A stretch of DNA of 64,000 nucleotides from IMG/VR virus record IMGVR_UViG_2681813233_000007; one strand, written 5' to 3'. Of the stretch, positions 24,300 to 43,662 are shown piece by piece (positions within the stretch are counted from its first letter, which is position 1; each line of letters opens with the position of its first letter). A program made the position numbers and the translations under genes. Below the pieces are notes generated by a model that saw nothing but the letters and a program-made list of their open reading frames with translations, made no database searches and was not told the DNA's origin. The DNA comes from a virus (taxonomy: Duplodnaviria; Heunggongvirae; Uroviricota; Caudoviricetes).

Positions 24300-24386
24300 T
24301 TCTACGGCACCTTAGAAAAACGGGTGCCGGGATTGGAACCCCGGATAATGTCAAAGGCGACACAGACGCCGAAAGCGTCTTTTTTT
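24300..24386 (+). ncRNA. candidate small structured RNA ending in an intrinsic terminator (c4-like antisense regulator candidate)
   Basis: Hairpins GGCACC...GGTGCC and CCGGG...CCCGG, then GACGC-CGAAA-GCGTC + T7; near-complement of hairpin 2 at 24489-24500. Confidence 0.3.
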
Positions 24387-24571
24387 GTGTCATGCCATCG
24401 CACAGCCATACGTAGCGTTTAGCTCAGAGATCAATGGTAGTGCTGGCTGGGCTGCCGAAAGGCAGGCCGGTTCCCTTTGACGCCGGTAGTTCCAACCCAG
24501 TCAGTGCTACCGCCATTGAGATTGGAACCTCACGCGGTAGCTCCTTAACTTAGTCAAAGGAGGCTGCCAAT

Positions 24572-31314: not shown

Positions 31315-31653
31315 TCAGGCTGCTTTTTTATTCAGGTTCCGCTGAGAAATAAATTTTTCAGCAGTATTGATACGACTTAACTCTTCCTGAACGCGCATAT
31401 CATTTTCGACTTCCCACAGATCTACTGCGGTCTGAAGATTAATCCAAAAATCTACAGAAGTATCGAATGCTTTTGCCAGGCGATATGCCATATCCATCGT
31501 TAGCTTACGATTATTATTAACAAGAGCACTTACGGTGTTACGATGAACATGAAGTATTTCTGCTAACTCGTTGATCTTCAGCTCTAACGGCTCCAGGTAT
31601 TCGTACAGCAGGATATCACCTACGGTCGTCGGTTTTCTGGTTGCCTGTTTCAT
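31315..31653 (-). CDS. higA: HigA antitoxin (XRE-family HTH)
   Basis: HTH core ELAEILHVHRNTVSALVNNNRKLTMDMAYRLAKAFDTSVDFWINLQ; downstream of higB. Confidence 0.8.
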   Translation of the reverse strand: MKQATRKPTTVGDILLYEYLEPLELKINELAEILHVHRNTVSALVNNNRKLTMDMAYRLAKAFDTSVDFWINLQTAVDLWEVENDMRVQEELSRINTAEKFISQRNLNKKAA

Positions 31654-31723
31654 TTTTTGCCCTTACTAGCGTGCGTATTAAGTGGACTCTGGTCAGAACC
31701 CGGTCCGTAACCGGGTATCTGTT

Positions 31724-32026
31724 TTAGTATTTGTGAGGGTCGAGATACAAGTCCTCGGCCTTTCCGTTAACCCACTTAAAAATTAACCTATATTGCTTAT
31801 TCACCCTTACTGATGAATAGCCATTTAGCTTCCCTGACAGTTCCTCATACCGATTACCTGGTGGTGATCTTAAATCCTTACAGGTAGTTGCGGCATTGAT
31901 AATGTCCAACTTCCGTGACAATGTCATATGAATATCAGGAGGTATCTTTCTATGTGGTGTTGAAAATTCAAAAAAATCATCAAGCCACGCATCCCTGAAA
32001 TCCTTTATGTTAATTTTTTTGGTCAT
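31724..32026 (-). CDS. higB: HigB toxin (RelE/ParE superfamily)
   Basis: SPPGNRYEELSGKLNGYSSVRVNKQYRLIFKWVNG...DPHKY. Confidence 0.8.
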   Translation of the reverse strand: MTKKINIKDFRDAWLDDFFEFSTPHRKIPPDIHMTLSRKLDIINAATTCKDLRSPPGNRYEELSGKLNGYSSVRVNKQYRLIFKWVNGKAEDLYLDPHKY

Positions 32027-35437: not shown

Positions 35438-36343
35438 ATGAGATCAGTCGCTTTCAAAAATATCTTCATCTATCGTCTTTCACGCGAAGTTAGCTGGGAT
35501 ACTGCAGAAGTAAATGCAGCCCTTAGCAAGTTTGTGTTTACCCCATGCGGTTCTCAGGATATGGCTAAAGCTGGTTGGACCCCCGTTCTTGGCGACAACC
35601 TCACCCATGAATACCAGGGTTTTCTTCTGATACAGCATAAACGAGAGGAAAAAATCCTACCCTCTCAAGTGCTCAAAGAAGAGTTACAGAAAAAAATCCT
35701 GACACTTGAAGAAGAGCAAGACAGAAAGCTGAAGAAGACTGAAAAAGATTCGCTGAAGGATGAAGTGCTTCACTCTCTTCTTCCTCGTGCTTTCACGAGA
35801 AAATCAGTCGCTAAAATCCTGATAGACCGAAGCAATCATCTGGTTTTTGTCGAGGCCAGCAGTGCTAAAAAAGCAGAGGATCAGCTGGCTTTGTTACGGA
35901 AATCGCTTGGCAGCTTGCCCGTTGTCCCCTTCTCTCCGAAAGACCCATTAGAACTGACCATCACTGGCTGGATTAAAAATGGCTTCCCGAACGGTTTCCG
36001 TGCCGGTGAGGAAGCGACCTTAAAAGCATTGCTTGATGATGGCGGCGCGGTCCGCTGCAAAAAAGTGGACCTGCTATCCGACGAGATCATGAGTCATATA
36101 GAAGCTGGTAAGGTTGCAACCACAGTTGCGGTTAACTGGCAAGACCGTGCATTTTTCAGACTGAATGACGATATGAGTATCAAGGCTTTGTCGTTCAGCG
36201 ACGAATTGTACGACCAGAACGACGATATTGATCGAGAGGATGTTGCGCAACGATTTGACGCTGACTTTATCCTATTTACTGCTGAATTATCAGCGATGTT
36301 CACCTCGCTAGTGGAGGCCGTTGGTGGTGAAGCAGAACGTTAA
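35438..36343 (+). CDS. hrdC: RdgC-family recombination-associated protein (HrdC)
   Basis: Alignable with E. coli RdgC end to end (YRLSRE...[49 protein letters not shown]). Confidence 0.85.
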
Positions 36344-38615
36344 CCTTCGATATGGTTCAGTTTGCAGTGGAATTGAAGCCGCGAGCATTGCCTGGGAACC
36401 GTTGGGTATGCGTCCGGCGTGGTTTGCTGAAATTGAGCCTTTTCCATCTGCCGTTCTTGCGCACCGCTGGCCTCATGTCGCCAACCTTGGCGATATGACA
36501 AAACTTGCCAAAAAAGTCCTGGCTGGGGAAATCGAATCCCCTGATGTGCTCGTCGGGGGAACACCTTGTCAGGCATTCAGTATCGCGGGATTACGTGGTG
36601 GGCTTGATGATGAGCGTGGCGCGCTAACTTTAAAGTATGTGGAGCTTGCAAATGCAATTGACGACAAACGGGCTGAGTCATTTCTCAAACCAGCCGTTAT
36701 CGTCTGGGAAAATGTCCCAGGAGTCTTGTCATCGGCAGATAACGCCTTCGGATGTTTCCTTGCCGGATTGGCTGGAGAAGATGCGCCATTTGAACCAGGT
36801 GATCGACCTGAATCAGGAAAAAGTAACACGTTCTGGCGGTGGGATGGCAAAACCGGTTGCCATGCTCCAAAGTGGCCGCAGTGTGGTTGTATTTATGGAC
36901 CGCAGCGAAAAGTGGCCTGGAGAATCCTTGATGCCCAATACTTCGGAGTGGCACAACGACGCCGACGCGTGTTTGTTGTCGCAAGTGCTCGAACAGACCT
37001 CGATCCCGCAACGGTACTTTTTGAGTTCGAAGGCGTGCGCCGGAATATTGCGCCGAGCCGAAAAAAGAAGGAAATCGCTTCCGCCATTATTGCAAATGGC
37101 GCTGCAATCAGTGGCGAAAGCCTAAATCCATGCCTACACGCTGACATGCCACCCGGTATGAAATCGACGAAAGCCGTAAACGCTTTCAGGATGGCAGCAT
37201 TTGGGGAATATATTGACGATGAAACCGCATCGACAGTAAAGGCAAGAGATTTTAAAGATGCCACTGACCTTGCCGTTTTTAGCAGCACAGGAGCAGGTTT
37301 TTGGTCAGAAGGGCATGGTACATTGCGGGCACGTGAGCAAGAAAGCCATGAGCATCTTGTTACATTGGCTTTTCCTGAGCGTATGAGCGGTACACAACAT
37401 GCTGCAACTAAGAATACTTCACCATCTCTAATGGCTAAAAATCCAACAGCTGTTTGCTATGAAGTAAGAAACGCAGAAGTAGCTGTCCGCCGTCTTACCC
37501 CTGTCGAATGTGAAAGGCTGCAAGGTTTTCCTGAGGGGCATACGTTGATCCCGACGGAAAAGCGTAAAAAAGTTTCTTCAGATGAACTGGCATACCTTCG
37601 CAATCACTATCCAGATTTAAGCGAAGAAGAGGCCGCGATGCTTGCAGCTGACGGACCGCGTTACAAAGCGATCGGCAACAGCATGGCAGTTCCTGTTATG
37701 CAATGGATAGGGTGTCGCATTCTTGCGACCGTAGCGGATAAACAGCAAAAAACAATAAATACCATTACCTACACAAGAAAACTCCGGACTCCGGATGAAT
37801 ATGAACGCCCAATATTCAAATGGGTAGGCGGTAAATTCTCAGAGTTGCCTACAGTGCTTGAGCATCTACCACACGGCAAGCGGTTAATAGAACCATTCGT
37901 TGGTGGCGGTTCCGTATTTACGAATGCAGGATTTCGCCACAACCTGCTTAATGATATTAACGGTGACCTGATTAACTTCTATCAGACATTGCAGCGAGAG
38001 GGACATTCGCTCGTCACGCTGGCATATAGTTTTTTCAAAAATTACAACAACGCTGACGCTTACCTCGAAGTGCGTGAGGCATTTAACAGAGGAAAGTATG
38101 ACCAACTACATCATGCTGCTGCCTTTTTGTACCTTAATCGGCACTGTTTTAATGGCGTAACGCGGTACAACCAAAATGGCGAGTTCAACGTAGGGTATGG
38201 CAAATACAAAGCGCCCTACTTCCCACATGCAGAGATGGAGGCATTTTTGGCTGATGACGTACTCAAAAACACTTCCTTTGTATCAGGTGACTTTGCTAGC
38301 GTCATTGAGGCGGCTGGTGAAGACGATGTGATTTTTTGTGATCCGCCGTATGAACCGCTTCCGGATACAGAGGGATTTACCAGCTATTCAGGAAATAGCT
38401 TCCGTTTCGACGAACAGAAACGGCTTGTATCACTGTTGGTGGATGCCCACCAGCGCGGCGCTAAGGTAGTGATAACAAATAGTGGTGCTCCAAACATCCG
38501 TGAACTATATGAAGGAAACGGGTTTAAAGTACATCATATGGCAGCCAGACGGTCGGTTTCCTGCAAGGCGTCAACACGTGTAGTTGCTAACGATATAATT
38601 GCAATAATGAAGTAA
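36321..38615 (+). CDS. dmt: bifunctional DNA methyltransferase: C5-cytosine MTase fused to Dam-like N6-adenine MTase
   Basis: N-terminal [12 protein letters not shown] and WENVPGV; C-terminal FVGGGSVF and DPPY; 764 aa as in P1 Dmt. Confidence 0.9.
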
Positions 38616-38646
38616 AAAACGCCGCAGTAGCGGCGTTTACTTTTTC
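38616..38646 (-). terminator. rho-independent terminator of glnS (bidirectional hairpin)
   Basis: CGCCGC-AGTA-GCGGCG flanked by A-run/T-run. Confidence 0.55.
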
Positions 38647-38663
38647 ATGTGGCGAAATACCTA

Positions 38664-40325
38664 TTAACCTAACTTCGCCCAGGTATCACGCAGCCCAACG
38701 GTGCGGTTAAATACCGGTTTTTCCGCCGTAGAATGGCGGCTGTCGAGGCAGAAATAACCTTCACGCTCAAACTGGAATGCTTTACCCGCTACCGCTTCTT
38801 TCAGCGACGGTTCAGCAAAGCCCTGTTTGATCACCAGCGATTCCGGGTTAATCACCGACAGGAAATCATCCGCAGCACCTGGGTTCGGCACGTTGAACAG
38901 ACGATCGTACAGGCGGATTTCAACCGGCAGCGCATGTGCCGCGCTCACCCAGTGAATAACGCCTTTCACTTTACGACCATCTGCCGGATCTTTGCTTAAG
39001 GTGTCGGCGTCATAAGTACAGAAGATGGTGGTGATATTGCCTTCGGCATCTTTCTCCACGCGTTCAGCCTTAATGACGTAAGCATTACGCAGACGCACTT
39101 CTTTACCCAGCACCAGACGTTTGTACTGCTTGTTAGCTTCTTCGCGGAAATCGGCGCGGTCGATCCAAATCTCACCGCTAAACGGCACCTGACGGCTACC
39201 CATTTCCGGTTTGTTTGGATGGTTCGGCATGGTGACCATTTCGCCTTCGCCCTGGTAGTTTTCGATAACCAGTTTCACCGGATCGATAACCGCCATTGCG
39301 CGCGGGGCATTTTCGTTGAGATCTTCACGGATGCAGGATTCCAGCGACGCCATCTCAATGGTGTTGTCCTGCTTGGTCACGCCGATGCGTTTGCAGAACT
39401 CACGAATAGAAGCCGCAGTGTAACCACGACGACGCAGACCGGAAATGGTCGGCATACGCGGGTCATCCCAGCCTTCAACGTGCTTGTCGGTCACCAGCAG
39501 GTTCAGCTTACGCTTGGACATCACGGTGTATTCCAGATTCAGGCGCGAGAATTCGTACTGGCGCGGGTGAACAGGAATGGTGATGTTGTCCAGTACCCAG
39601 TCATACAGACGACGGTTGTCCTGGAACTCAAGCGTACACAGAGAGTGCGTAATACCTTCCAGCGCATCGCTGATGCAGTGGGTGAAGTCGTACATCGGGT
39701 AGATGCACCACTTGTTGCCAGTCTGGTGGTGTTCAGCAAACTTAATACGGTACAGCACCGGGTCGCGCATCACGATAAACGGCGAAGCCATGTCGATTTT
39801 CGCACGCAGGCAGGCTTTACCTTCTTCAAAACCACCGGCACGCATTTTTTCGAACAGCGCCAGGTTCTCTTCAACGCTGCGGTCGCGGTACGGGCTGTTT
39901 TTACCCGGCTGCGTCAGGGTGCCGCGGTATTCGCGGATCTGTTCCGGCGTCAGTTCGTCAACATACGCCAGGCCTTTGTTGATCAGTTCAACAGCATAGG
40001 CATGGAGTTTGTCAAAATAATCGGAGGAGTAACGGATGTTGCCAGACCAGTGAAAACCTAACCATTCAACGTCGTTTTTAATCGACTCAACGTACTCGAT
40101 ATCTTCTTTTACCGGGTTAGTGTCGTCGAAACGCAGGTTGCACTGGCCTTTATAGTCCTGGGCGATCCCGAAGTTCAGGCAGATAGATTTCGCATGACCA
40201 ATATGCAGATAGCCATTCGGTTCCGGCGGGAAACGGGTATGTACTGTGGTGTGCTTACCACTGGCCAGATCTTCATCGATGATCTGACGAATAAAGTTAG
40301 TCGGGCGGGCTTCTGCCTCACTCAT
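38664..40325 (-). CDS. glnS: glutaminyl-tRNA synthetase
   Basis: 553 aa; HIGH motif (LHIGHAKS), KMSKS-type VMSKRK; N-terminus [24 protein letters not shown] recognised as enterobacterial GlnS. Confidence 0.95.
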
Positions 40326-40593
40326 TGTGGATTCCTCAAAGCGTAAACAACGTATAACAGCGTATGATCTTATAAGCCGAATAGGCTGACAACCACTAGT
40401 TGATTAGAAATTGCTTTCTATCGTTATTTCAATAATGAGCTTTTTCATGAAGCCCACTTTTGCGCATAAGTAAATTAATGATAAATGGCACACAATTGGA
40501 ACCAAAAAGGATGTAAAGGTGCACCAAATTAGTGGTGTATTGGTACACCTTTGGTTCAAGACTTTTTAAGTTCTAAAACCAACCTGAAAGACT

Positions 40594-40881
40594 TTATTTT
40601 GCTTCCTCAGACTCCGCTAACATGAGGATAGCATGGCGGATCATATTCAATTTGCTGCGATTATGCTTTTTACTTAACGCATCAAGTACTTGGTACTCGT
40701 ATTCATTGAAACCAACACGAATAGATTTAAAATCACGTGGAGCGTCCTTATCGAGCACTTTGTTGTCTTCTGGTTGCTCACCCGGCACCAAATCAGCCTT
40801 ACTGGCAAAATCCTCAATTCGGCGTTCAAGATCGGGGTCTTTTACTTCGGGGGCTTTTACCGATTTACGAGGCTTAATCAC
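40594..40881 (-). CDS. small RHH centromere-binding protein (ParG-like)
   Basis: C-terminal ribbon-helix-helix; 8-nt overlap with upstream ParA gene. Confidence 0.55.
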   Translation of the reverse strand: MIKPRKSVKAPEVKDPDLERRIEDFASKADLVPGEQPEDNKVLDKDAPRDFKSIRVGFNEYEYQVLDALSKKHNRSKLNMIRHAILMLAESEEAK

Positions 40882-41545
40882 TTAATAACTCCTTAACCAA
40901 CATCTGGATTTCACCTTTAGCTTTCCCGTTGTCCATCTCAACAACGCCCTTCCCTTCAGCCATGCAATCGCGGTAAACCTTACGATCACGAATGATGGTT
41001 TTCAGCAACTTCAGTTGCGGATATTCAGCTAGGTACTCTTTGGCCTCATTGGTTTCATTCACAACCGGATTGGATGGGGCCATTGTTAAGACTGCGAACG
41101 CCTTAATGCTAGGATTAGGCATCAGGTCCAAAGCCTCTTCAAACACTTCAACAAAGTGTGCCAGCGTGTCTAAATCTGGTTGAGATGGTCTGAATGGGAC
41201 CAACACAATATCTGCAGCGGTTATGCCTGTACGCATCTCTTTGCTATCGCGCCCGGCTGTATCAACAACTACAAATTCATAACGCTTATCCAGATCGAGA
41301 AGTGTTTCTCGAATATTACCAAACTTCTGGACACAATGAATTACAGGAGAAACCTCTGCCGTGTTACGGTCAGCTGCCCAGCGGGCAGCTGTTCCTTGCT
41401 TGTCTGCATCTAGTAACACTACATCCTTATTTGCGCGGGCAAGCTCCGCACAGATGTTTACGCTTGTGGTTGATTTTCCACAGCCACCTTTTTGGCTGAC
41501 TACCAATATAATCATATCCGTTCCTCGGTGTGATTTTGGTATCAA
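40874..41545 (-). CDS. ParA-family partition ATPase (small type Ib, ParF-like)
   Basis: Deviant Walker A SQKGGCGKST; 223 aa. Confidence 0.8.
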   Translation of the reverse strand: MIPKSHRGTDMIILVVSQKGGCGKSTTSVNICAELARANKDVVLLDADKQGTAARWAADRNTAEVSPVIHCVQKFGNIRETLLDLDKRYEFVVVDTAGRDSKEMRTGITAADIVLVPFRPSQPDLDTLAHFVEVFEEALDLMPNPSIKAFAVLTMAPSNPVVNETNEAKEYLAEYPQLKLLKTIIRDRKVYRDCMAEGKGVVEMDNGKAKGEIQMLVKELLSD

Positions 41546-41802: not shown

Positions 41803-42147
41803 TCAATCAGGTAGAGAGTCAGCCAGATTGCGCGCCGACGCGCTTTTGGCAACAACTTGCTCCTTCACTGGCTCAATGGAGGCAGGGCGCTCCTCAACCG
41901 CAGCTGGTAGTTCCAGGAAGGATGCCAGCATTTTTCGGATCAGCTCCGGGTTATTGTCTTCGGTCAGCAGGGAAGCCAGTAATCCTGGAAGCCTGCTATC
42001 GACTTCTCCCAGCGCAAGCCCTGCCAACAATGCGGTTCTTGCCATATCGCTATGTTTTTTTATCTTCTCGCTCGCCGCCTTTTCATTGGCATAAGCCTCT
42101 GGGCGAAGATAAATCATCACTTTCTTACGTTCCTGAGACATGGACAT
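41803..42147 (-). CDS. parR: ParR-like centromere-binding protein
   Basis: Small protein directly downstream of parM; AALLAGLALGE region resembles ParR/StbB. Confidence 0.6.
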   Translation of the reverse strand: MSMSQERKKVMIYLRPEAYANEKAASEKIKKHSDMARTALLAGLALGEVDSRLPGLLASLLTEDNNPELIRKMLASFLELPAAVEERPASIEPVKEQVVAKSASARNLADSLPD

Positions 42148-42154
42148 TACCTCG

Positions 42155-43135
42155 TTAACCGATTGCTTTCAGGCCATGAACAAGAGCAAGTTGCGGGTCA
42201 TCCGCCACGAAGAAACGGTCATCACGAATATTAACTTGCTCGCGAATTGCATCTGCCACCAGCGGTGCGCCACCACCGATCACCATGACATGCGTATATC
42301 CTTTAAAGTCGCCAATCACATCAAGAACTCGGGTACGCAGACGGTCAATGCTTGCGGCAATGGCCTTTTTCACATCACCAATCGCTGATGGGTCATTGAT
42401 ATTGTCGTTCAGATAATCTTCATCGTGGCGGTTAATAATGAGCTGATCAACATTGTAATTTGACGTTTCGGTATTGGCCCTTGCAAGTGCTTGCCTTACT
42501 TCCCTGGTGACCAGTGATACACCAAGATTCGAATCGCCAAAAACACGGGAAACTGCCGTCATTTGCCCAGCGACCATTGAAACATCAAGGGTAGTTCCAC
42601 CCAAATCGACGATAAGAACAGAATGGACAGGGTTCAGATTGTCGCACAGGCCAATTCCTGCCGGAATAGACTCCGGTCGTACCGTAACTTTCTTAATCGT
42701 GAACACATTGCCTTTATTCAGCGTGACGGGGCGCATAAGGCTGGCTTTCTTGCGCTCGATGTTATCGAGATTGTATTGCGCGTCGTCGTCGTAAAACTCC
42801 GCCAGAGGCAGCGTGACCACAATTTCTACTTCCTGCGGCTCAATACCGCTTGTCAGCAGGGCATGGTGAACAGCCAGGACGTTAAGCGGGCTGTATTGCC
42901 ATTCCACGTTATTCGTCGGCAGAACATCTGGCGAGATCAAATCATACGAATACTTCTCGTCGTCAATGACATAGTTAAACGGCTTGCCAGCACCAAATGT
43001 TGCTGACCATCCGCGCTTAAAGCTGTTAGGACTGATGTGAGTGCGAGTTTCCCCGTCGTGCTCCCACAGCATTTTGATATTGGTTGAACCATCATCGATA
43101 AAAATGCGCATCTTCTTGCTCCACTTCTGAGACAC
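42155..43135 (-). CDS. parM: ParM/StbA actin-like segregation ATPase
   Basis: IFIDDGSTNIKM, HISPNSF, LIVDLGGTTLD, VMVIGGGA motifs; 326 aa. Confidence 0.85.
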   Translation of the reverse strand: MSQKWSKKMRIFIDDGSTNIKMLWEHDGETRTHISPNSFKRGWSATFGAGKPFNYVIDDEKYSYDLISPDVLPTNNVEWQYSPLNVLAVHHALLTSGIEPQEVEIVVTLPLAEFYDDDAQYNLDNIERKKASLMRPVTLNKGNVFTIKKVTVRPESIPAGIGLCDNLNPVHSVLIVDLGGTTLDVSMVAGQMTAVSRVFGDSNLGVSLVTREVRQALARANTETSNYNVDQLIINRHDEDYLNDNINDPSAIGDVKKAIAASIDRLRTRVLDVIGDFKGYTHVMVIGGGAPLVADAIREQVNIRDDRFFVADDPQLALVHGLKAIG

Positions 43136-43377: not shown

Positions 43378-43662
43378 ATGAGCGCAATAGCCACCAGCGA
43401 CACCCTTTGTTCTGGTCACGGAGGATTTCCGCCGCGACTGGTAGCTGAAACCGTTCCCTGGTTCACCGTTAACGGTAAGCCAGTTGTTGTAGATGGTGCC
43501 ATGTTTCCCAGTCACACTGACGGTAACAGTGCACACCCAGGGGCAGCTGTATCGACGCGAGTATGGTTTTCGATAGGTGGAAAGGGAGTTGTCTGTGTAG
43601 GCGATCCGCTTTCTTGTGGTTCTGTTATCGCCAACGGCGAGGATATTTTTCAGGTTGCATAA
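43378..43662 (+). CDS. PAAR-like spike-tip protein
   Basis: 94 aa; CSGHGG ... VNGKPVVVDGAM ... IGGKGVVCVGDPLSCGSVI. Confidence 0.5.
   Translation: MSAIATSDTLCSGHGGFPPRLVAETVPWFTVNGKPVVVDGAMFPSHTDGNSAHPGAAVSTRVWFSIGGKGVVCVGDPLSCGSVIANGEDIFQVA

Follow-up and report, generated by a model that had tools for sequence, protein, structure and literature searches.

An intact glutaminyl-tRNA synthetase gene in the D6 phage-plasmid lineage: probable single old capture, purifying selection and patchwise conversion by chromosomal alleles

Introduction

Why does a phage-plasmid keep, over a long time, a near-perfect copy of glnS, the essential gene that encodes glutamine--tRNA ligase (glutaminyl-tRNA synthetase, GlnRS)? 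The question is raised by a stretch of 64,000 nucleotides of DNA from a virus of the Caudoviricetes (IMG/VR record IMGVR_UViG_2681813233_000007; this whole stretch is hereafter called the window), which contains a full-length glnS on its minus strand at positions 38664..40325. Essential housekeeping genes are rare on mobile elements, and in a 2019 survey only 30 complete aminoacyl-tRNA synthetase (aaRS) genes were found among 13,661 plasmids (PMC6785131). An earlier note on the window, made from its letters alone, had called such a gene unusual on a phage-plasmid. The window glnS is no one-off, however: the literature already records it as a characteristic gene of the D6 phages. It corresponds to orf62 of Escherichia phage D6, and in a 2019 paper (PMC6799933) glnS is treated as a conserved cargo gene (moron) of D6-like genomes, with credit to the D6 genome paper of Gilcrease and Casjens (2018), and a role in host fitness or plasmid maintenance is proposed by comparison with cysS of plasmid pBT1. 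No report of a functional test of D6 glnS was found in the literature searched, and a 2025 survey of phage-plasmids makes no mention of the gene. Likewise, four aspects presented below, namely the map of the junctions, the relatives with an empty site, the mosaic structure with its old block and the Dam-sensitive promoter beside dmt, were not found in the literature searched. We consider it probable that the glnS of the D6 lineage is a cargo gene which goes back to a single old capture, has been held by purifying selection while chromosomal alleles converted it patch by patch, and provides a second source of GlnRS.

Results and Discussion

The open reading frame (ORF) at 38664..40325 (-) starts with ATG, is free of internal stops and encodes 553 amino acids (aa). 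With the NCBIfam glnS equivalog TIGR00440 (cut-off, 425.8 bits) its product scores 1066.5 bits along profile positions 1-524 of 524, and it is composed of the class I Glu/Gln catalytic domain (PF00749, aa 28-337) and two anticodon-binding domains (PF03950, aa 340-439, and PF20974, aa 456-528). The class I motifs HIGH (aa 41-44) and VMSKR, which is of the KMSKS type (aa 268-272), as well as Asp236 (D235 in the crystal), are the same as in the crystallised GlnRS of Escherichia coli, according to an alignment to 1o0b. In relation to the enzyme of strain K-12, the window GlnRS is one residue shorter, displays ~99% aa identity (structures 1o0b and 1gsg) and differs by six conservative substitutions in 553 residues (V97I, Q106K, I112V, S478N, D510E and V552L), none of which falls in HIGH or VMSKR. 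The ORF, TIGR00440, the Pfam domains and the alignment to 1o0b agree with what had been read from the letters of the window, an intact 553-aa class I aaRS with HIGH and KMSKS-type motifs, and the small number of differences from the K-12 enzyme bears out its assignment to the enterobacterial type of GlnS. Based on the identity of ~99% to the crystallised E. coli enzyme, the product is predicted to aminoacylate tRNA-Gln. No tRNA gene, tRNA-Gln included, was found within the window, so that the plasmid GlnRS, which we expect to be expressed, would have to charge the tRNA-Gln of the host. For the related plasmid pYU39_89, PMC6799933 mentions tRNAs for Asn, Thr, Ser and Met. The GC content reaches 54% in the kilobase inside glnS, compared with 43-48% in the adjoining kilobases.

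At 100% identity, the window region corresponds to the closed circular plasmid pE2863-2 (NZ_AP018804.1; 92,925 bp) from a bovine E. coli, and window positions equal those of the NZ_AP018804.1 record minus 1901. pE2863-2 is a D6-like phage-plasmid. Its genes around glnS are of the P1/D6 type: besides those for tail, baseplate, capsid and sheath they comprise rdgC, the gene of a Dmt-type methylase, and two operons, one ParA-like and one ParM/StbB. Phage D6 (MF356679) aligns to the window over the 3' half of dmt and onward across the partition genes (98.2%), and its orf62, at the same location, is annotated as 'glutaminyl-tRNA synthetase, similar to E. coli GlnS'. The annotations of pE2863-2 and D6 confirm the placement of glnS between dmt and the partition module, as the earlier note had it. 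D6 orf62 and its counterpart in pYU39_89, from Salmonella Typhimurium ST213, share with the window gene the dmt-par site, the 5' junction, the ...AKLG* end and the terminator. The D6 and window genes are 98.1% identical at the nucleotide (nt) level and differ in three aa; the 3' third of the window gene is KTa008-like, whereas that of D6 is K-12/O157-like, and otherwise only allele-level differences separate the two.

Could such an arrangement be an artefact, either an assembly chimera or a chromosomal window? The earlier note had itself named these two doubts, and both are ruled out: the window matches a closed plasmid at 100%, the same junctions recur in phage D6 and in ~100 independent plasmid assemblies from four host species, and the adjacent par module, present in 101 of 5,426 complete E. 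coli genomes, lies on a plasmid every time and never on a chromosome. We regard the chance of an artefact as negligible. Integration of the phage-plasmid into the chromosome via glnS homology was also considered and rejected, the par module being found on 0 of 5,426 chromosomes.

Alignment to K-12 delimits a chromosome-derived cassette of 1,746 bp at 38668..40413 (-), which is 96.1% identical to K-12 706006-707750 and contains the promoter, the leader and the coding sequence (CDS) without its last codons. The cassette begins 88 bp 5' of the ATG. At the opposite end homology stops inside the last codons, where the chromosomal ending ...AKVGE* is replaced by ...AKLG* in the window copy, and the sequence downstream of the chromosomal glnS, terminator included, is not in the captured segment. 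The window gene shares with the E. coli chromosomal glnS (b0680) the promoter core, the ribosome-binding site, the CDS (96.3-97.5% nt and ~99% aa identity) and a GATC in the -10 hexamer, but it has neither nagE upstream nor chiZ/chiP downstream, lacks the chromosomal terminator, and its last codons are replaced. The captured native promoter and leader occupy 40326..40413 (-), where a consensus scan and the alignment place the -35 hexamer TTGTCA at 40392-40387, the -10 hexamer GATCAT at 40369-40364 after a 17-nt spacing, and the ribosome-binding site GAGGA at 40337-40333. Both promoter and leader are invariant in five close plasmid copies. Some 270 bp of upstream sequence had previously been credited to the gene; only these 88 bp are promoter and leader of glnS, and the remainder is not chromosomal.

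Downstream of glnS, folding predicts a bidirectional intrinsic-terminator hairpin at 38617..38638 (no strand assigned), between the convergent dmt and par-glnS units, with 9 bp, six GC pairs, T-runs on both strands and a z of -2.9. Relatives without glnS, a plasmid of Shigella dysenteriae (NZ_CP026816.1) and two of E. coli (NZ_CP085065.1 and NZ_LR890273.1), have only ~135 bp between the methylase gene and the 95-aa ORF of the par operon, and align to the window as far as 38623-38639 and then again from 40596. At the site of the window's hairpin they display a GC-rich hairpin of their own with flanking A-/T-runs, and in the two E. coli relatives the alignment passes through the window's hairpin. 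Given that the capture left the chromosomal terminator behind and that the glnS-less relatives, too, show a hairpin in this place, this element is probably the backbone terminator between convergent dmt and par, now serving glnS too. The hairpin which had been taken for the gene's own terminator is real, but it is not that of the chromosomal glnS and probably belongs to the backbone.

On the other side of the gene, a non-chromosomal spacer of ~180 bp (40414..40595, no strand assigned), delimited by alignment, separates the par operon from the glnS promoter. It carries inverted repeats (AAAGGTGCACCAA / TTGGTACACCTTT at 40515-40552, GAACCAAA / TTTGGTTC at 40499-40557, and others) and matches neither the chromosome nor, in sequence, the spacers of the empty sites, which have different, GGTACC-type repeats at this position. 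The spacer is probably part of the backbone, with a possible role as centromere or operator of the adjoining partition system. A hairpin between the par operon and glnS has its T-run on the opposite strand only, and it is possible that par-operon transcription reads into glnS.

The contiguous empty-site arrangement is present in 17 E. coli genomes, and glnS remnants, sought in the empty-site relatives as a sign of secondary loss, were not found there. Since sister lineages without glnS exist, the 2019 claim that the gene is present in all D6-like genomes needs qualifying. In the glnS-less sister lineage (NZ_CP085065.1, NZ_LR890273.1 and 15 more), the par ORF is ~97% identical to that of the window and the methylase side 72%, which points to a recombination breakpoint exactly at the glnS site.

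Twelve copies were compared. Besides the glnS of the window and that of D6, they comprise those of pB2C_96 and of nine other plasmids, among them pYU39_89 from Salmonella; each is an intact 553-aa gene, and the ...AKLG* end is common to them all. The same site, 5' junction sequence and terminator were found for the glnS of NZ_CP099330.1, a D6-like plasmid of Escherichia fergusonii whose backbone is only ~88% identical (~12% diverged) across the region. This glnS is intact, ~5% diverged in every block and 554 aa long, and ends in ...AKVEG*, a third C-terminal variant; its divergence may reflect conversion by the E. fergusonii chromosome or an old divergence. A neighbour-joining tree places the plasmid copies beside E. 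coli, with Escherichia albertii ~5% and Citrobacter ~12% away.

Sequence comparison also delimits a divergent block, referred to here as the old block, at CDS nt 85-372 (39954..40241, (-)), which is diagnostic of the plasmid copies and in the window ~6% diverged from the chromosomal glnS. The fixed differences between plasmid and chromosome, 12 of 12, fall within CDS nt 87-369, for which the chance would be ~8e-10 if they were evenly spread, and V97I, Q106K and I112V are located in this block. Here a distance of 4.5-6.9% separates the plasmid copies from the nearest E. coli chromosome sampled, whereas E. coli chromosomes are at most 1.0% from each other and 5.4% from E. albertii; the synonymous divergence (dS) of the block is 0.32, compared with 0.25 for E. 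coli-E. albertii over the whole gene. A search of the complete E. coli genomes with the block only returned 73 records with at least 95% identity and 5,427 records at 90-95%. Because the latter figure equals the 5,427 chromosomal places of glnS, no chromosome appears to carry the plasmid-type block; transfer of this block into chromosomes was not seen in any of the 5,426 E. coli genomes, and its flow appears for this reason to run from chromosome to plasmid only.

A foreign, non-Escherichia donor of the old block was considered and rejected: the best 80 species representatives listed, a set that excludes E. fergusonii, Escherichia marmotae, Escherichia ruysiae and Salmonella chromosomes, hold nothing closer than Escherichia (best, 93.8% and 93.0%). 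Recent capture from the current host, one of the origins that the earlier note had offered, does not hold either. The nearest chromosomal allele is only 97.5% identical to the window copy, the glnS of pB2C_96 differs from that of its own host at 61 sites, the ...AKLG* junction is common to the twelve copies, the old block lies well off the chromosomal alleles, and a copy with the same junction is found in E. fergusonii. These comparisons indicate that the capture of glnS is single and old. We hypothesize that an ancestor of the D6 lineage once captured a 1.75-kb piece of an Escherichia chromosome, with promoter, leader and a CDS cut in its last codons, and that this piece settled with the ParA-type partition operon on one side and convergent dmt on the other, where transcription would end at the probable backbone hairpin.

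Outside the old block, the plasmid copies lie within the diversity of E. coli, each resembling different chromosomal lineages. In nt 1101-1650, for instance, the copies of D6, pYU39_89 and ptetA are 0.4-0.5% from K-12 or O157, and the window copy comes closest, at 1.1%, to the KTa008/15.TR.026 type. The plasmid and chromosome sets have 33 polymorphisms in common, and in a four-gamete homoplasy test the incompatibility of neighbours was 0.22 versus 0.40 when permuted; p was <0.001 for plasmids, for chromosomes and for both sets taken together. Even the old block has been touched in pF16EC0589-1 (CP088384.1), where nt 234-369 are replaced by the chromosomal type, and pB2C_96, given its 61 site differences, shows no recent conversion by its own host. 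Altogether, the plasmid glnS is best described as the core of an old lineage overwritten patchwise by gene conversion from resident chromosomal alleles; conversion would repeatedly have overwritten parts of the gene and left the plasmid-specific block nt 85-372. Among the chromosomal sequences, the glnS of 'E. coli' SCPM-O-B-8794 (NZ_JAATUR010000059.1) is ~5% from all E. coli chromosomal alleles compared, as is that of E. albertii, and this strain probably represents a cryptic Escherichia clade and not E. coli sensu stricto.

Within the plasmid set the pairwise ratio of nonsynonymous to synonymous divergence (dN/dS) is 0.024, within the chromosome set it is 0.011, and comparison of plasmid with chromosomal copies gives 0.032. 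For the old block, in which the plasmid copies display no lesions, the ratio is 0.047. Polymorphisms private to the plasmids comprise 8 nonsynonymous and 29 synonymous changes (p = 4e-11, the neutral expectation being 74% nonsynonymous). The plasmid glnS is apparently under purifying selection and has been kept intact over a long time. Conversion could provide another explanation for intactness, in which the gene would be a neutral passenger, picked up by chance and preserved only by gene conversion from the chromosomal copy; the clear mosaicism with chromosomal alleles, the viability of related lineages without glnS and one copy that may be frameshifted (CP088384.1) speak in its favour. Nevertheless, the old block, with its low dN/dS and no lesions, is unconverted in 73 of the ~75 E. 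coli plasmid copies, and the private polymorphisms just described also argue against mere repair. Furthermore, the copies in Salmonella hosts are intact even though the resident gene is more diverged and would be a poorer template, the copy of the E. fergusonii lineage is intact at ~5% divergence, and that of pB2C_96 is intact without recent conversion by its host. A neutral passenger is, on this evidence, improbable.

Several observations weigh against our preferred reading of a single old capture under purifying selection. Part of the purifying signal may have been imported with chromosomal tracts, and some of the 'private' variants may themselves be chromosomal imports, because the site-by-site chromosome comparison covered only seven or eight alleles; the old block is less exposed to this caveat. 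In CP088384.1, an A-run at ~nt 1603 of glnS is longer by one A, so that the reading frame changes beyond ~aa 535, and the gene is unannotated there; this may be either a real frameshift in a decaying copy or a homopolymer error of sequencing or assembly. Among the chromosomes compared, none could be identified as coming from the lineage that donated the old block. Finally, related phage-plasmids without glnS exist in 17 E. coli genomes, and the gene is consequently dispensable for the phage-plasmid lifestyle.

The three substitutions in the old block also raise the question of whether the plasmid enzyme is a counter-defence or resistance allele, that is, whether a GlnRS with V97I, Q106K and I112V resists or titrates a toxin, an inhibitor or a defence system that hits GlnRS or tRNA-Gln. 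They lie within 16 residues and are largely conserved among the plasmid copies, and K106 occurs in none of the outgroup species examined. Plasmid-borne resistant aaRS paralogues do exist, such as the mupirocin-resistant IleRS. However, all three substitutions are conservative, Citrobacter and Enterobacter normally have I97 and V112, Q106K and V97I are absent from some plasmid copies, and the host enzyme has the same HIGH, the same VMSKR and otherwise the same catalytic domain. To our knowledge, no natural toxin targeting GlnRS is known in this host range, and the literature searched mentioned none. Since ~99% identity to the host enzyme is accompanied by unchanged catalytic motifs, resistance to an inhibitor or toxin is very unlikely. 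An inhibitor-resistant paralogue of the mupA/ileS2 type was rejected as well: in place of a divergent substrate or inhibitor pocket, the window enzyme displays six conservative differences in 553 residues.

In PLSDB, a protein with at least 95% aa identity is encoded by 105 plasmids, from E. coli, Salmonella, Shigella flexneri and E. fergusonii, and among the matches listed the only shortened copies are one split by the record origin and that of CP088384.1. The complete E. coli genomes contain ~75 plasmid copies of glnS, and among the cultured phages in the collection a glnS of this type is found only in D6. Three PLSDB records labelled plasmid, CP088669.1 (730 kb), CP061270.1 (1.2 Mb) and CP125156.1 (5.4 Mb), carry a chromosomal-type glnS; they look like mislabelled chromosome fragments or whole chromosomes and are unsuitable for counts of plasmid aaRS genes. 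The chromosomal glnS is present in 5,425 of the 5,426 E. coli genomes, and strains B2C, EP91B and 205 have both the chromosomal and the plasmid gene, the chromosomal CDS of B2C being intact with 1,665 nt. These counts are consistent with every plasmid-bearing host retaining its chromosomal glnS.

The retained host copies bear on a further explanation, in which glnS would be a plasmid-maintenance device of the cysS-pBT1 type: the GlnRS of the element would take over the essential function, for example through an element-driven decrease in chromosomal glnS expression, and loss of the element would cost the cell. A precedent is provided by Salmonella Typhimurium D23580, in which the CysRS of pBT1 is needed for normal growth and the chromosomal cysS is down-regulated (PMC6333337; the precedent also appears in PMC6785131), and the same idea was put forward for D6-like glnS by the authors of PMC6799933. 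In both cases an essential gene for a class I aaRS has a second copy on an enteric plasmid that is large and inherited stably, and the position of glnS next to two partition systems also speaks for a maintenance device. Against it, addiction through loss of the chromosomal glnS was not seen in the 5,426 E. coli genomes or in strains B2C, EP91B and 205, the plasmid GlnRS is ~99% identical in aa to that of the host, compared with 89% aa (79% nt) for pBT1 CysRS and its chromosomal counterpart, and the element already has a HigBA toxin-antitoxin pair. Unlike pBT1 cysS, for which growth dependence was shown, the window glnS resides on a phage-plasmid and recombines with the chromosomal gene. We consider a maintenance device unlikely.

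Translation genes encoded by phages are also known from large phages, whose aaRS and tRNA genes resemble D6 glnS in this respect. GlnRS homologues in uncultured phage genomes of 630-640 kb and in faecal phage contigs have 50-57% aa identity; these are distant, not host-like, and represent unrelated events, whereas D6 glnS is a near-identical host copy with a host promoter.

Returning to the preferred reading, in which an old captured gene is maintained by selection, the plasmid would act as a second source of GlnRS, with a dosage that tracks the copy number of the element. The selected benefit could be an auxiliary gain in translation or dosage, of modest size, for the element or the lysogen; we put this attribution forward tentatively, as being slightly closer to doubt than to acceptance. 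The promoter may add a further layer, since its -10 hexamer GATCAT includes a Dam GATC site which is kept in all aligned plasmid copies, that of E. fergusonii included. For the chromosomal glnS, deletion of dam or mutation of Dam sites within its promoter causes derepression (Plumbridge and Soll 1987, as cited in PMC11741368), and RNA-seq data from PMC11741368 itself give a log2 fold change of +1.08 for the gene. Because the plasmid promoter keeps GATC in its -10 hexamer, expression of its glnS may likewise respond to the methylation state. A more far-reaching interpretation sees in the locus a recombination interface that has persisted for long between an essential chromosomal gene and a phage-plasmid, with selection keeping the I97/K106/V112 block, and/or a GlnRS output linked through Dam to replication of the element and to its methylation. 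A Dam-repressible promoter beside the element's own Dam-type methylase would then give a burst of GlnRS from newly replicated, undermethylated copies during lytic growth. We judge this interpretation rather unlikely; if true, D6 glnS would be a regulated auxiliary translation gene with properties distinct from those of the host enzyme.

The genes flanking glnS and some other features of the window complete the picture of the element. By ORF and annotation, the Dmt-type DNA methyltransferase, convergent with glnS, has 764 aa (annotated as Dam family) and lies at 36321..38615 (+). In the window dmt is a single ORF, whose 5' part (~36352-37785) resembles P1 dmt (~87% identity) and not D6; in D6 there are instead two separate methylase ORFs, orf64 (cytosine) and orf63 (adenine). 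This comparison indicates that the methylase module directly adjoining glnS has been swapped between the P1 and D6 lineages. Upstream of glnS, ORF, annotation and Pfam analysis assign 40594..41545 (-) to a ParA-like ATPase (40874-41545) and the 95-aa ORF (40594-40881), for which no Pfam match was obtained. Two partition systems follow in tandem on one strand, the ParA-like gene with the 95-aa ORF (40594-41545) and StbB-like with ParM (41803-43135). At 24307-24517, Rfam recognises isrK (24307-24385, 62.7 bits) followed by C4 antisense RNA (24430-24517, 77.1 bits); by these profiles this is an immunity RNA region of the P1 immI style, consistent with a P1/D6-type prophage. According to the annotation of the source record, the element also encodes a HigA antitoxin paired with a toxin of the RelE/ParE family and, apart from this pair, a PAAR-domain protein (31315-32026 and 43378-43662).

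Conclusions

The analysis leaves the identity of the gene as it was and sharpens the question posed by this locus in three respects: an old single capture, purifying selection, and an exchange with the chromosome that keeps a diagnostic block. Members of the D6 family are found, if infrequently, in E. coli, Shigella and Salmonella, among them invasive and multidrug-resistant lineages. The 12 fixed single-nucleotide polymorphisms and the three aa markers (I97, K106 and V112) make allele-specific expression and proteomics straightforward. An explanation for the long retention of a near-perfect copy of GlnRS would reveal in what way elements of this kind adjust or take over translation in the host, or ensure that they are inherited.

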